Virus record (IMG/VR): IMGVR_UViG_2534681649_000004
DNA: 8,155 bases
Strand: one strand, 5' to 3'
From: a virus
Taxonomy: Duplodnaviria; Heunggongvirae; Uroviricota; Caudoviricetes
In this document: positions 17 to 5,832 of the stretch, one piece after another
Layout of the letters: each line of letters starts with the position of its first letter
Position numbering within the stretch: the first letter of the stretch is position 1
The notes under the pieces: model-generated
What the model was told of the DNA's origin: nothing
Seen by the model: only the letters and a program-made list of their open reading frames with translations
Databases searched by the model: none
Made by a program: the position numbers and the translations under genes

Positions 17-43
17 TGAGGTGTACTGGCAATAGCGGACACT
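17..43. repeat. IS600-like terminal inverted repeat (orfB-proximal end)
   Basis: TGAGGTGTACTGGCAATAGCGGACACT; pairs with the reverse complement of 1254..1280 (TGAGGTAGCCTGAGTTTAACGGACACT), sharing the TGAGGT terminus and the CGGACACT inner block. Confidence 0.55.
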
Positions 44-59
44 ACCATTTGTTCTTTTT

Positions 60-878
60 TTAAGCAGCCATCTGATGATATTTTTCCCTGAAGGCTGCCG
101 GGGAGATATTCCCCAGACGAGAGTGACGACGCTGACGATTGTAGAAAATCTCAATGTATTCCCGTATTACTGAGATGGCTTCATCCCGGTTATTAAAACG
201 ATAGTGGCTCAGGCTCTCATTTTTCAGCGTTCCCCAGAAGCTTTCCATCGGAGCGTTGTCGTAACAGTGACCTTTACGCGACATTGATGTTTTCAGACCA
301 GACTGCTCCTGTATGACCCGGTAATCGTATGCGCAGTACTGTGAACCTCGATCAGAGTGGTGGATTAGCCCGGCAGGTGGGCGCTGGCTCCTGAGCGCCA
401 TAAACAGGGCTTTACCTGTCAGCTCTTTTGTCATGCGCTCTCCCATGGCGTAGCCGACAATTTCGCACGTATAAACATCTTTGATGCCAGCGAGGTACAA
501 CCATCCCTCCTGTGTGGCAACATACGTCAGGTCCGCCACCCAGACCTGATTTGGTGCTGTAGGAGCGAACGTCTGGTTCAGCAGATTTGGCGCAACTGGC
601 AGATTGTGGTTCGGGTTCGTAGTCGCTCTGAACTTGCGTTTCTGCTTACAGCGTAGCCTTAGCTCCTTACGAAGACGTGCCAGTCGGTCACGACCAACGA
701 TGATGCCATTCTCTGCCAGCTCCGTCTGGAGCCGCCGGGTTCCATATGTTTCGCGAGTGCGGATATGTGCCACCTTAATCTCCAGTTTTAGCCGCTCATC
801 ACTTTGTTTTCTGTCTGAGGGTTCATGCTGTACCCAGTTGTAATAACCGCTCCTGGATACACCAAATACCTGACACAT
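60..878 (-). CDS. IS3-family transposase OrfB (DDE integrase catalytic domain), IS600-like; expressed in vivo as an OrfAB fusion by -1 frameshifting
   Basis: 272-aa ORF with DDE-type motifs (VWVADLTYV, HHSDRGSQY, CYDNAPMESFWGTLKNE). Sits in the -1 frame relative to orfA (codon phase checked by hand). Stop codon TAA at 60..62. Confidence 0.9.
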   Translation of the reverse strand: MCQVFGVSRSGYYNWVQHEPSDRKQSDERLKLEIKVAHIRTRETYGTRRLQTELAENGIIVGRDRLARLRKELRLRCKQKRKFRATTNPNHNLPVAPNLLNQTFAPTAPNQVWVADLTYVATQEGWLYLAGIKDVYTCEIVGYAMGERMTKELTGKALFMALRSQRPPAGLIHHSDRGSQYCAYDYRVIQEQSGLKTSMSRKGHCYDNAPMESFWGTLKNESLSHYRFNNRDEAISVIREYIEIFYNRQRRHSRLGNISPAAFREKYHQMAA

Positions 879-913
879 CGCTTCAATGGGAAATTGTTGT
901 CGCCATTGTTCGA

Positions 914-1216
914 TTAACGCGTATTTTTCAGCGACTCCTGTGCAAAATACGCTGTTGCTTTTTTTAATATATCTCGCTCAAGGCGAGCTTCATTTAACGC
1001 CTTACGCAGTTGCAGAATTTCAGATTCCAGTTCAGCCACCGTGCGGGAACCAGGAGTACCGAGCCCTTTTCTGGCGGCGGTAACCCATTGTCCTAAAGTG
1101 CCTTCAGGAAGGGATAATCGGGAAGCGCCTTCACTGATCGAAAGTTGATTTTCAAGAACCGTTCTGACAGTTTCGGCTTTGAACTCTTTAGAGTAACGTT
1201 GGTTTTTTCTGCTCAT
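914..1216 (-). CDS. IS3-family transposase OrfA (helix-turn-helix DNA-binding and leucine-zipper part), IS600-like
   Basis: 100-aa ORF MSRKNQRYSKEFKAETVRTVLENQLSISEGASRLSLPEGTLGQW..., typical IS3 OrfA. AGGAG Shine-Dalgarno about 7 nt upstream of the ATG at 1216. The ORF overlaps the slippery run. Confidence 0.9.
   Translation of the reverse strand: MSRKNQRYSKEFKAETVRTVLENQLSISEGASRLSLPEGTLGQWVTAARKGLGTPGSRTVAELESEILQLRKALNEARLERDILKKATAYFAQESLKNTR
959..965 (-). promoter_or_regulatory. Programmed -1 ribosomal frameshift slippery heptamer (A_AAA_AAA then G) between orfA and orfB
   Basis: T7 run on the plus strand at 959..965 is A7 on the coding strand, read TTA AAA AAA GCA (L K K A) in the orfA frame. 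A -1 slip enters the orfB frame (phase confirmed). Analogous to the A AAA AAG motif of IS911/IS3. Confidence 0.55.
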
Positions 1217-1253
1217 TATTAGCTCCTTCTGATGCCATTCTATTTCAGGAAGG

Positions 1254-1280
1254 AGTGTCCGTTAAACTCAGGCTACCTCA
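1254..1280. repeat. IS600-like terminal inverted repeat (orfA-proximal end)
   Basis: Reverse complement TGAGGTAGCCTGAGTTTAACGGACACT matches 17..43 at 19/27 positions; element ends in ...CA as expected for the IS3 family. Confidence 0.55.
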
Positions 1281-2046: not shown

Positions 2047-3240
2047 TACGCTGACTGCGGTAAAAGATAAGTTTGGTCCGGGTAAGAACGGATTTACTGA
2101 CGGAAATCTTCGCACAGGACGTCTTGCTACCTGGCTGAACAGTGCCATGTGGAATGCCATTCAGGAGGAAATCTGTGGTGTCATTGAGAAGGCCGGGATA
2201 GAACTGAATAAAGAAGAACACGACCAGCTATATAAGGCTATATTATTGCTGGTGGGCGGTGCAATTAACGAAGAGGCATTGCTGATAAAAAATAACCTTT
2301 CGGATGTGGAAGACAGGGATGAGGCTGTTGAAAACCTCGGATTAAAACCCACGGTGGATAAGGCAAAAAATGCCGTTCAGCGTGATGGCGACACCATGAC
2401 CGGAGAGCTGAAAATCCGTGGTGTTAATGCGCTGAGGATTTTCAACGAAGCTTTTGGCCTGATTTTTCGTCGTTCGGAAGAGTGCCTGCACCTTATTCCC
2501 ACCAGTGAAGGTCAGGGGGAAAATGGCGATATTGGTCCCCTGCGCCCGTTCACCATTAATCTGCGGACGGGTGAAATATCCATGTCGCATAAAGTGTCTG
2601 TTGGCGGTGGTTCGCAGGTCAATGGTGCGCTGGGTATCGGCGTTCAGAACGCCCTGGGGGGAATTCAATTGCTTTCGGGGATAACGATACAGGTATAAAA
2701 CAAAACGGCGACGGCATTCTGGATGTTTATGCGAATGGACAGCATGTATTTCGTTTCCAGAATGGTGTGGCGATAGCGTTAAAAAATATTCAGGCCGGAA
2801 ATGCTAAAAAATTCACGTTATCCAGCGCCAACAACTCCACGAAAAATGCAGCGTTTTATTTGTGGGGTAATCCATCCAGGCCTGTTGTTGCAGAGCTTGG
2901 TGATGATTCCGGCTGGCATTTCTACAGCCAGAGAAATACCGATGGTAGTATCACATTCGCTGTAAACGGACAGGTAATTCCGTTAAATTACGGAAACTTC
3001 GATGCCCGCTATAAACATCGAACTGAGGGGGTACAGGATGTGCGGTATGGTTATGAAATGTATTACAACCCTGGCAGCAACACCGTTTCATGGACGTTTC
3101 GCTCACCTTCGGGACACGGGTTGTCAGGGATATCGATATCGGATACCGGCCGTAACTCAGCGGATAACGTCAACGGTGTGTATTACCGACCGCTGCAAAA
3201 ACTGATTAATGGCATCTGGTATAACGTAGCGAGTATTTAA
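2033..3240 (+). pseudogene. Tail fibre gene (Mu S / e14 Stf type) split by a 1-nt frame offset in a G6 tract; N-terminal segment 2033..2698, C-terminal segment from about 2662 to 3240
   Basis: N-terminal frame (MHRIDTLTAVKDKF...VQNALGG, likely start ATG 2033 after GAGGA at 2023..2027; the track's 2021 start is in the same frame) stops at 2696..2698. The other frame is open from 2593 and encodes NSIAFGDNDTGIKQNGDGILDVYANGQHVFRFQNGVAIALKNIQAGN...RPLQKLINGIWYNVASI, the conserved C-terminal block of lambda Stf/T4 gp37-type fibres. The two join seamlessly at the G run 2656..2661 if one more nucleotide is present. Confidence 0.75.
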
Positions 3241-3242
3241 CA

Positions 3243-3788
3243 ATGTTGCATTTAAAAAATATTACGGCAGGTAATCCGAAAACCGCGGAACAATATCAGC
3301 TGACAAAACAGTATGATGTCACCTGGCTTTTTTCGGAAGACGGCAAAAACTGGTATGAAGAACAGAAGAACTTTGCCAGTGACACCATAAAAATGGTTTA
3401 CACCGGAGACGGGCGCGTGGTGTGGGTCGGTAAGGATGTGACAGGCATTGAACCCCGTAACGCCAGTGTTATTGAAGTTCCTGATATTACCGCCAACCGC
3501 CGCATTACCGCGCCGGGTTACTGGTTTTACCGCAATGATGAATTTGTCTTTGACTACAGACTCAAAGCGGAAGATGAGCGTGATGCCCTTCTGGCTCAGG
3601 TCAGTGCCCGGACAGGGGAATGGGAAGAAGACCTGCTGCTGGGGCTAATCAGCGACGAAGACCGGGAAAAACTGAAAGCGTACCGTATTTACGCGAAATC
3701 GCTGCAGGCGATGGATTTCAGCGCCATCACTGATAAATCCTCATACAACGCCATTGAATGGCCCGTCTCTCCGGAAGGTTCTTCCTGA
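3243..3788 (+). CDS. Tail fibre assembly protein (Tfa / Mu U / P2 G family chaperone)
   Basis: 181-aa ORF starting MLHLKNITAGNPKTAEQYQLTKQYDVTWLFSEDGKNWYEEQKNF, the characteristic Tfa N-terminus. Starts 2 nt after the fibre gene stop. Confidence 0.85.
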   Translation: MLHLKNITAGNPKTAEQYQLTKQYDVTWLFSEDGKNWYEEQKNFASDTIKMVYTGDGRVVWVGKDVTGIEPRNASVIEVPDITANRRITAPGYWFYRNDEFVFDYRLKAEDERDALLAQVSARTGEWEEDLLLGLISDEDREKLKAYRIYAKSLQAMDFSAITDKSSYNAIEWPVSPEGSS

Positions 3789-3811: not shown

Positions 3812-5080
3812 ATGTCTGTAGTGATATCAGGTGCGCTGACTGATGGCGCAGGCATCCCCATGTCCGGATGCCAGATTATTCTGAAATCCCGTGTAAACAC
3901 CTCAGAAGTGGTGATGCGTACCAGGGCTGATGTAGTGACCGGAAATAACGGTGAATATTCGTTTGAGGCACAGGTCGGAAAATATTGCGTGTATCTGAAA
4001 CGGGACTGGCGCGACGAGTACTGTGTTGGCGACATTGCTGTATACGACGACTCAAAGCCCGGCACGCTGAATGACTTTCTGACTGCCCCCGATGAAGGCG
4101 ACCTGAAGCCGGATGTCGTCAAACGCTTTGAGGAAATGGTGGCGCAGGCGCAGCAGAGCGCCGGGGCCGCAGCCGGAAACGCACAGCAGACGGCGCAGGA
4201 TGTGGCGGCAGCCGCAGGTTATGCCCGCGCAGCAGAACAGGCCAAAAATGACATTGATGCTGCGCTGACCGGCACTCTGAAAATGGCTAACCATCTGTCA
4301 GAAATCGCAGCAGCAGGCGAAAAGGCACAACAGAAGTCCCGGGATAATCTGGGGCTGAAAAGTGCGGCCACGATGGAAGCACAGAGCGACATTTACGACC
4401 GGACAAAAGGCCGTCTGGCGATACCCGGCGCATTCGGCTTTGGGTGTGCTTTTCTGCCTGAAGATGTTATCCGTTTTGACACTAAGAGTGATTTCCTGGC
4501 CTGGGTAAGGAATGCGCTGCCAGGTGAATATTCCGTTGCTGGCCCCTACGACATCATCATACCCGACACACGGTTTGAAGGGGTGCTCAGCATCCGGTGG
4601 ACTGATGCACGCCCTGAGACAACAGAACCGCGGTACAGAGCCAAATCCCTTACTTTTTACGGCATTAACGGCCCCATTTATCACACCCGCTACTGCTACT
4701 GGCCCATATCCAGACTGACTGGCTGGGTGAAAATAAATATAACCACAGAAGATATTATTTACAGAATCGTGGCGAGCTCTGTCCGCAACAGATGGGGAGA
4801 CCCTGACATTGGCGGGCTGATTATTGCTGCGTACCAGGGAGAAGCTGACGGTGATAAAGTCATCAGACTTGTCAGGGGGCAGTCATACAGAGGCTCACGA
4901 CTGGGACCGGTGGGGATTTCAGTGCCCAGTACTCCCACCGGAACGTATATAGCATCCCCACAATTTTTCATTACGGGATGTTCAGAGCATTCATTACCGG
5001 GGTCATATTGCGCCCTGTCCGGGGGGCCGGATGCACATGTCTCTGGCGCAATGCCCGGGCTTTTTATTCGCACATCGTGA
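3812..5080 (+). CDS. Second tail fibre protein: lambdoid side-tail-fibre-type N-terminal domain, Ala/Gln-rich linker, and a C-terminal domain I cannot place
   Basis: 422-aa ORF. N-terminus MSVVISGALTDGAGIPMSGCQIILKSRVNTSEVVMRT...VYDDSKPGTLNDFL resembles the prophage tail fibre N-terminal domain of StfR/lambda Stf (from memory), followed by AQAQQSAGAAAGNAQQTAQDVAAAAGYARAAEQAK and an NLGLK motif. The C-terminal roughly 230 aa are Cys- and aromatic-rich with no family I recognise. Confidence 0.75.
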   Translation: MSVVISGALTDGAGIPMSGCQIILKSRVNTSEVVMRTRADVVTGNNGEYSFEAQVGKYCVYLKRDWRDEYCVGDIAVYDDSKPGTLNDFLTAPDEGDLKPDVVKRFEEMVAQAQQSAGAAAGNAQQTAQDVAAAAGYARAAEQAKNDIDAALTGTLKMANHLSEIAAAGEKAQQKSRDNLGLKSAATMEAQSDIYDRTKGRLAIPGAFGFGCAFLPEDVIRFDTKSDFLAWVRNALPGEYSVAGPYDIIIPDTRFEGVLSIRWTDARPETTEPRYRAKSLTFYGINGPIYHTRYCYWPISRLTGWVKINITTEDIIYRIVASSVRNRWGDPDIGGLIIAAYQGEADGDKVIRLVRGQSYRGSRLGPVGISVPSTPTGTYIASPQFFITGCSEHSLPGSYCALSGGPDAHVSGAMPGLFIRTS

Positions 5081-5083
5081 GGA

Positions 5084-5653
5084 ATGCACCGTGGAAATTA
5101 AAAAATCATTAATCCCCGTTATACCGAAAGTGGCGCAGTAGACTGTGACGTTTTTTTTGACGACAGGGACCAGGCAGTCCCCTACACAGCCACCGCTGAT
5201 GATGTCGCTCCGACGGGTCAGCAAATCTGGCAGGAACTGCAAAGCGGCAAATGGGGTGAGATAGCCCCATTCACTGTGACACCAGAAATGCTGGAAGCGG
5301 CCAGAGAGGCCAGACGTCAGGAAATTGAAGCATGGCGCGCAGAACAGGAGGCGAAGCCGTTCACGTTTGAATGGAACGGTCGTATCTGGAATGCTGGTCC
5401 CGACTCACTGGGCCGCCTGTCCCCGGTAGTCATGCTGGCAAAATCTGTCACAGCACAAACACATATGGCGTGGAGCGATGCCGATAATCAGCAGGTGAAA
5501 CTGTCGATGCCGGAACTGGAAGAACTGGCGGCAGCAATGGTGCAGGCGCAGGTCGATCGCAACGATGAGATTTATCGCCGTCAGCGTGAAATGAAAGAGG
5601 AGCTGAGCGGTCTGGATGATTTGGCTTCAATTCGGGCGTTTGACGTTGAGTAA
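5084..5653 (+). pseudogene. Tail fibre assembly/chaperone-like gene (DUF4376-like C-terminus) with an in-frame TAA at codon 6; alternatively a shorter CDS from GTG 5276
   Basis: ATG 5084 follows GAGG (5079..5082) overlapping the upstream stop, reads MHRGN then TAA (5099..5101). The same frame then runs open for 184 codons to 5653 with no ATG/GTG/TTG before GTG 5276. C-terminal sequence (FEWNGRIWNAGPDSLGRLSPVVMLAKSV...KLSMPELEELAAAMVQAQVDRNDEIYRRQ) resembles phage tail-fibre chaperone domains, from memory. Confidence 0.5.
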
Positions 5654-5769
5654 TGAATAAGCCGCAACTGGCGGAATCACAGAAGACCGCTTTGCTTACC
5701 GAAGCGGAGTCTGTCATCCGGCCGCGGGGGCGTGCTGTCAGGCTGAACAGGGAAACGGATGAATCCGGG

Positions 5770-5796
5770 GAGGCCCGGGGGCGGGCCTCTGTTTTT
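5770..5796 (+). terminator. Rho-independent terminator between the convergent tail-fibre operon and ipaH
   Basis: GAGGCCCG (5770..5777), loop GGGG, CGGGCCTC (5782..5789), then TGTTTTT. An 8-bp GC-rich perfect stem with a T tract on the plus strand; the reverse strand has the same hairpin preceded by A's, so it may act partly in both directions. Confidence 0.55.
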
Positions 5797-5832
5797 CCGG
5801 AGTCAGTCCGGTCTGTGGTTTATGCGATGTGA

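Follow-up and report, generated by a model that had tools for sequence, protein, structure and literature searches.

The stretch of DNA analysed here (8,155 nucleotides, hereafter the window; IMG/VR record IMGVR_UViG_2534681649_000004) carries part of a caudoviricete tail module in a decaying Shigella-type prophage remnant, and the gene in question lies downstream of a tail-fibre gene at positions 5091 to 5653 of the plus strand, where it encodes a putative tail-fibre chaperone with a DUF4376 domain. The tail-fibre gene (3812..5080, plus strand) specifies a protein of 422 aa that is presumed to be the chaperone client; it was identified by a match to PF08400 (prophage tail fibre N-terminal domain, 211 bits), by PHROG 2636 (tail fibre), and by the annotation of near-identical loci with the Prokaryotic Genome Annotation Pipeline (PGAP). 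Its stop codon TGA (5078-5080) is overlapped by the Shine-Dalgarno sequence GAGGA (5079..5083, plus strand), which is followed by two potential start codons. ATG 5084 opens an open reading frame (ORF) of six codons, ATG CAC CGT GGA AAT TAA (5084..5101, plus strand), ending with the TAA at 5099-5101. GTG 5091 (5091..5093, plus strand) lies in another frame, 11 nt past the fibre stop, and precedes a run of six A residues (A6; 5100..5105, plus strand). After the TAA, the frame of ATG 5084 is open again for 183 sense codons (5102-5650) until the stop TAA at 5651-5653; its first ATG, GTG or TTG in the ORF listing is GTG 5276, which leaves 58 codons (5102-5275) without a canonical start. The initial annotation had read ATG 5084, the TAA and GTG 5276 in the same way, with close counts of 184 open and 60 start-less codons, and interpreted them as a gene that starts at ATG 5084 in translational coupling with the fibre gene and was recently interrupted by a nonsense mutation at codon 6. 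We arrive at a different lesion: very probably, one A is missing from a run of seven (A7), and this loss shifts the frame of a DUF4376 gene that starts at GTG 5091.

The difference is located by alignments of the start region. Where intact alleles have A7 within codons 4-6 (AAA AAA ATC), the window reads ATT-AAAAAA-TC, as against ATT-AAAAAAA-TC in a 99.8%-identical locus of enteroinvasive Escherichia coli (EIEC). With A7, the frame from GTG 5091 begins GTG GAA ATT AAA AAA ATC ATT AAT CCC (VEIKKIINPRY) and comprises 187 codons, whereas with A6 it ends after 16 codons; putting one A back into the window gives an ORF of 187 aa. The change in length relative to intact relatives is limited to the mononucleotide run, and there are 0 differences from an A7 locus (L063) over the 627 aligned nt that cover the start region and the 5' part of the gene. 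The length of the run was tallied in 89 comparator loci, collected by a pattern scan of IMG/VR and by exact-protein look-ups: 76 of them have A7, 12 have A6, and one has A5. The IMG/VR scan, in which any 5-9 bases were allowed at the run, accounts for 61 loci (A7 in 53, A6 in seven, A5 in one). The look-up with the fibre protein retrieved 10 NCBI genomes, several of them finished, which have the same locus with the insertion sequence IS600 at the same place, and the run is A7 in each of the 10. The closest same-locus relative (L066, AMKB01000038) is separated from the window by three substitutions and one A over 7,845 bp. In addition, a megablast search of positions 4700-5900 against finished E. 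coli genomes yielded 10 EIEC genomes with loci of 96-99.8% identity, annotated in the order 'prophage tail fiber N-terminal domain protein', 'DUF4376 domain-containing protein', and convergent ipaH. Among the same-locus relatives, the A7-to-A6 difference is limited to this contig.

The TAA at 5099 is no mutation, because all 89 related loci have the six-codon ORF in unchanged form. The string ATGCACCGTG..ATTAA was found in every one of them, loci with an intact gene included, and in the 76 A7 alleles this incidental ORF and the gene are in different frames. The sense codon (CAA, AAA or GAA) that the initial annotation expected at codon 6 of the orthologues is accordingly not found. A gene start at ATG 5084 followed by a recent point mutation to TAA at codon 6 would agree with the window itself, where this ATG is in frame with the gene body, yet its probability is practically nil: what sets the gene apart from its same-locus relatives is an indel at the run and not a substitution, and the more distant orthologues have no ATG at this position and start at the equivalent of GTG 5091. 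Moreover, ATG 5084 abuts GAGGA, only 1 nt past its GAGG core. A gap of 1 nt is too short for a Shine-Dalgarno interaction, so the proposed translational coupling of ATG 5084 does not hold, whereas GTG 5091, located 7 nt after GAGGA and 8 nt after GAGG, has normal spacing.

The start at GTG 5091 (ATG in the E. coli orthologues) is further indicated by comparison of N-termini. At the equivalent position of the start-region alignment, the orthologue of E. coli SE11, roughly 79% identical, reads ATG GAA ATA AAA AAA ATA (MEIKKI), with AGGTGA located 6 nt before this ATG. In a protein search, the full-length orthologues from E. coli, Salmonella and Escherichia sp. (75-80% identity, 187-193 aa) display the N-terminal pattern M-[EQNK]-[IV]-[KQ]-[KE]-I, represented by MEIKKI, MQIKEI and MEVKKI, in alignment with V-E-I-K-K-I. 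The profile alignment of PHROG 1141 begins at residue 1 of the protein translated from GTG 5091, and the orthologue L57 (188 aa) of the functional Stx2e phage phiP27 likewise starts at the stop codon of its fibre gene. Taken together, these comparisons show that the native start of the Shigella/EIEC gene family would be the GTG at the fibre stop, which gives a predicted protein of 187 aa. The PGAP/RefSeq models in EIEC and Shigella (L001, L003) differ from this assignment; they comprise 207 aa, reading MHMSLAQCPGFLFAHREECT-VEIKK..., and begin with an ATG that precedes GTG 5091 by 60 nt. This ATG is situated inside the fibre gene, so that the additional codons (window positions 5031-5090) overlap it by 50 nt. 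The longer model is probably an annotation choice with a start placed too far upstream, because the 20-residue extension is missing in more distant orthologues.

Under the proposed single-base loss, ribosomes would initiate at GTG 5091 with the GAGGA that overlaps the fibre stop, leave the frame after Lys5, and terminate at TAG 5139-5141; the predicted product, VEIKK-SLIPVIPKVAQ (5091..5141, plus strand), has 16 codons. The body of the chaperone gene (5102..5653, plus strand), which corresponds to residues 5-187 of the intact protein and includes the DUF4376 domain at residues 70-175, would be left in the -1 frame relative to the start, and its 183 codons would still be open only as nothing else has changed yet. 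By coincidence, the deletion would put this body in the frame of the upstream ATG 5084, and it is because of this alignment of frames that a stop at codon 6 was perceived in the initial annotation.

The region between the run and GTG 5276 was examined as a possible non-coding segment upstream of a genuinely short gene, either of 125 aa from GTG 5276 or of 121 aa from ATG 5288. A 125-aa ORF from GTG 5276 (5276..5653, plus strand) was called by the annotators of the assembly, other pipelines call the 121-aa version in damaged alleles, and the 125-aa product would hold the whole DUF4376 domain. We nevertheless consider a natively short gene extremely improbable. Positions 5102-5275 are conserved coding sequence, because the encoded residues have 67% amino-acid identity to SE11 and the nucleotide differences are biased to the third codon position (11, 8 and 28 at positions one to three). 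Intact alleles and all full-length orthologues have 187-193 aa, and the orthologues start at the equivalent of GTG 5091 and not of GTG 5276. In the AlphaFold2 model of the repaired protein (predicted local distance difference test score, pLDDT, 90), the N-terminal 48 residues form a confidently folded beta domain with a helix. Neither 5276 nor 5288 is preceded by a Shine-Dalgarno sequence at a distance of 5-10 nt. The initial annotation was right that the gene is not a short one, and the ORF at GTG 5276 is a remnant call: its 125-aa product would keep the DUF4376 domain and lose the N-terminal domain, and significant expression is unlikely because no ribosome-binding site stands at a usable distance.

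The A run raises the question of recoding. A-rich sequences such as the A6C of IS1 and the A AAA AAG of dnaX are known slippery sites in E. coli, and the window likewise has six A residues read as Lys-Lys, where a -1 slip would restore the protein. The A6 of the window could be decoded to full-length chaperone through -1 slippage of tRNA-Lys or through addition of an A by RNA polymerase; a -1 shift on AAA AAA (5100-5105) gives exactly the wild-type VEIKKIINP. Alternatively, this run could act together with the T8 run located 46 nt downstream as a phase-variable switch, and the lengths of both the A and T runs do vary among related loci, T7 occurring in chromosome-scale assemblies. However, unlike the IS1 and dnaX sites, the site in the window has no conserved frame arrangement, heptamer or stimulatory element. 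The gene is a single continuous ORF in 76 of the 89 close loci and in all more distant orthologues; the E. coli orthologues have no run in the codons for these residues, as in MQIKEITS and EVLFEG; the 0-frame context T AAA AAA T contains no X XXY YYZ heptamer; and shuffled sequences fold as well as the 70 nt downstream (z -0.74). Contingency loci and efficient transcriptional slippage typically involve runs longer than these (6-8 nt), which are also lineage-specific, and the rest of the module is dead. These features make decoding or switching at the run very improbable, and there is an equally slim chance that the A6 allele is alive in the sense that slippage restores low-level chaperone and, with the T8 run, tunes or switches its expression in the Shigella/EIEC prophage family.

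Whether the missing A reflects a real mutation or a homopolymer error in a draft contig is close to balanced, with a slight lean towards the mutation. In the case of an error, which is a variant of the single-base reading and which we rate somewhat below an even chance, the run is A7 and the gene intact in the strain, one base having been under-called in the contig. The window is the whole contig AKNB01000189.1 (8,155 bp) of the draft assembly GCA_000268185.1, bounded by repeats of IS600 and IS1; the AKNB accession series is probably a Shigella draft set of 2012. Several points weigh against an inactivating deletion. Some full-length protein could still arise from a low level of -1 slips at the A run. 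The A6 state is read from the draft contig sequence alone, and all A6 or A5 alleles come from early-series whole-genome shotgun drafts (ADUU, AKMY, AKNB, AMGB) or IMG/VR contigs, with none in finished genomes. Among the IMG/VR loci, shortened A runs go together with shortened T runs (5/8 vs 7/52, Fisher p = 0.006), as systematic, platform-specific under-calling of homopolymers would yield. An error is also suggested by the same-locus genomes, where A6 occurs in 0/10, and by the 10 finished EIEC genomes, where the best match is A7 in all (53 places in total, of which the best place per genome was read); truncated gene calls in finished or chromosome-scale genomes trace to other lesions, and the gene, if dead, has not accumulated substitutions. 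On the other hand, the contig is not error-ridden, showing a single indel in 7.8 kb against its nearest relatives, and its other 16 homopolymers of at least 6 nt all match them. Real inactivating lesions of the chaperone gene are common in finished Shigella genomes, where the gene is free to decay, and A7 runs are genuine slipped-strand hot spots. The other A6 alleles were considered as an arbiter between mutation and artefact; they occur on several backgrounds, yet none is in a finished genome, so they bring no decision.

Shortening of the A run is a recurrent change, because A6 is found in alleles with several different sequence backgrounds. The second run, T8 (codons V-F-F; 5151..5158, plus strand), is intact in the window, and in related loci it also occurs as T6, T7, T9 and T10; among 74 tallied sequences, 11 have T7. 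As a separate observation, two different paralogous loci of the same assembly (L076 and L078, both GCA_000296305.1) have the same compound run change, from AAAAAAATC to AAAAAACC, which suggests gene conversion between the copies or a consensus collapse of repeats in the assembly.

Shigella genomes that are finished or assembled at chromosome scale have other copies of the chaperone gene (L085, L088, L094, L089-L092, L093, L081, L086, L087, L091) with different inactivating lesions, including GAA-to-TAA at codon 2, T8-to-T7, deletion of a single C about 80 nt into the gene, and replacement of the 5' end beside an insertion sequence. This variety indicates that the chaperone gene decays repeatedly and independently while ipaH is kept. 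With respect to the window, the initial annotation had regarded the lesion as recent and as independent of two others in the tail module, an IS600 insertion and a frameshift at a G run, and this relative order is borne out: on comparison of the loci, the loss of the A would be the newest event, or an error, and the IS600 insertion and the G-run frameshift would be older, because both are common to the same-locus relatives and A6 is not. Loss of the chaperone would be without consequence in a prophage already dead through IS600 in a baseplate gene and a frameshift in the first fibre gene.

The finding is ordinary, either a pseudogene lesion or a sequencing error of known type. As in other homopolymer frameshift pseudogenes of Shigella prophage remnants, and in draft errors, a single base is lost in a run and the rest of the ORF is untouched; nothing is distinctive here in comparison with these cases, and the neighbouring genes had already been hit by IS600 and by a G7-to-G6 change. 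Its biological weight is small, since it amounts to the real or apparent loss of one base from a chaperone gene in a remnant already disrupted by IS elements. Its value lies in annotation, in that the predicted native start is the GTG at the fibre stop (187 aa), neither the ATG of PGAP (207 aa) nor ATG 5084; this analysis of start codon and frame still holds if the draft under-calls the run and the strain has A7 with an intact gene. Length discrepancies recur at two runs in the 5' end of the gene, A7 and T8, so pseudogene counts from draft Shigella assemblies need caution at such runs, and 'premature stops' beside homopolymers should be checked for a change of frame before a nonsense mutation is called.

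The assignment of the gene as chaperone-like in the initial annotation agrees with the domain content of the repaired 187-aa protein and with experimentally supported DUF4376 fibre chaperones. Residues 70-175 score 61.1 bits with Pfam PF14301 (DUF4376), where the cut-off is 25, and the match to PHROG 1141 extends over the whole protein (E 2e-88); the gene directly follows a tail-fibre gene on the same strand, as it does in EIEC, SE11 and phiP27. A PDB sequence search with the repaired protein gave nothing meaningful (best E 0.1, VPS13), a Foldseek search of the AlphaFold2 model against PDB gave no match at E <= 0.001, and megablast against deposited phage genomes found only orthologues of about 80% identity (phiP27, Rac-SA53) and no close phage. 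In Alteromonas phage V22, the DUF4376 protein gp27 is needed for the cell-binding fibre and weakly co-purifies with it, and both V22 gp27 and A5 gp9 are predicted to form a trimeric cap like the intramolecular chaperone domains of the K1F and T5 fibres (PMC7289586, PMC10579305). In the Campylobacter element CJIE1, a DUF4376 gene downstream of the H-fibre gene is needed for receptor-binding function (PMC7882524). Like the protein studied here, these three have a C-terminal DUF4376 domain, a length of about 190-240 aa, and a gene directly downstream of a tail-fibre gene; however, the domain is all they have in common with it and the N-terminal part is unrelated, while the copy in the window is frameshifted after codon 5 in a defunct prophage. 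We propose, by analogy, that gene 5091-5653, in a prophage tail module like that of phiP27, encodes a tail-fibre chaperone of the DUF4376 type, the function in the enterobacterial subfamily being assigned in the same manner. As a trans-acting chaperone, the intact protein would bind the C-terminal tip of the 422-aa fibre and aid its trimerisation, as envisaged for V22 gp27.

True orthologues are found in PHROG 1141 and include phiP27 L57, SE11 ECSE_RS08485 and other E. coli prophage DUF4376 proteins, with 75-80% identity over the full length. Like the gene in the window, theirs come after a 'prophage tail fibre N-terminal' gene where the tail module ends, and encode the N-terminus M-E/Q-I-K; they are intact, start with ATG, and are without the A7 and T8 runs, whereas the copy in the window has a GTG start, both runs, and one base missing. 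The Caudo_TAP proteins (lambda Tfa, Mu U / TfaMu) have the same role and gene position as the DUF4376 protein. Membership of the latter in Caudo_TAP (PF02413) was rejected, as it has no Pfam match to this family and an hhalign probability of 0.1% against the window's own Caudo_TAP protein.

The surrounding genes follow the order in which the phiP27 tail operon ends: baseplate wedge (Mu gp48-like / YmfQ), fibre 1, Caudo_TAP, fibre 2, DUF4376, small ORF, and cargo next to the attachment site. At the upstream end, an IS3-family element, IS600 (17-1280, minus strand), with two ORFs, is inserted in a baseplate J/gp47 gene, of which the last ~52 codons are left (1298-1456). The first fibre gene, intact at 402 aa, is split into ORFs 2021-2698 and 2767-3240 by a G6 run at 2656-2661, as against G7 in EIEC strain FDAARGOS_944; unlike A6, this G6 run is common to all ten same-locus NCBI genomes. 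A Caudo_TAP assembly protein identified with Pfam (3243-3788) serves this first fibre gene. Downstream of the chaperone gene, a small conserved phage ORF of 59 aa (5653..5832, plus strand) has an ATG that overlaps the chaperone stop (TAATG); its function is unassigned, with matches to PHROG 7784 (149 bits) and weakly to Caudo_TAP (E 0.0013), and it would lose translational coupling if the chaperone gene were untranslated. A G+C-rich hairpin followed by a T run (5769..5800, plus strand) resembles a terminator; it closes the tail operon immediately ahead of the stop of the convergent ipaH. The end of the 59-aa ORF coincides with that of ipaH on the opposite strand, an intact gene (5833..7476, minus strand) for an effector of 547 aa with leucine-rich repeats and an NEL E3 ligase domain (Pfam NEL, 258 bits; PGAP names in near-identical loci). 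Effector genes are known to sit after tail-fibre genes (PMC3530523), and the position of ipaH as cargo here fits this habit; the remnant is presumably retained for it.

The contig ends in IS600 and, at 7860-8155, in IS1, and its breaks are repeat-induced. IS1 follows directly at 7860, and about 617 bp that are found there in same-locus genomes (e.g. L068) are missing. The breakpoint falls within a gene for a class I S-adenosylmethionine (SAM)-dependent methyltransferase, the 5' part of which is included in the missing stretch, and the junction has the appearance of a deletion next to IS1, or of contigs joined within repeats. Between ipaH and IS1, positions 7604-7783 (plus strand) match Rfam RF02799, CssrB (chromosome-encoded Shigella small RNA B), over its full length, with 227 bits against a gathering threshold of 76.
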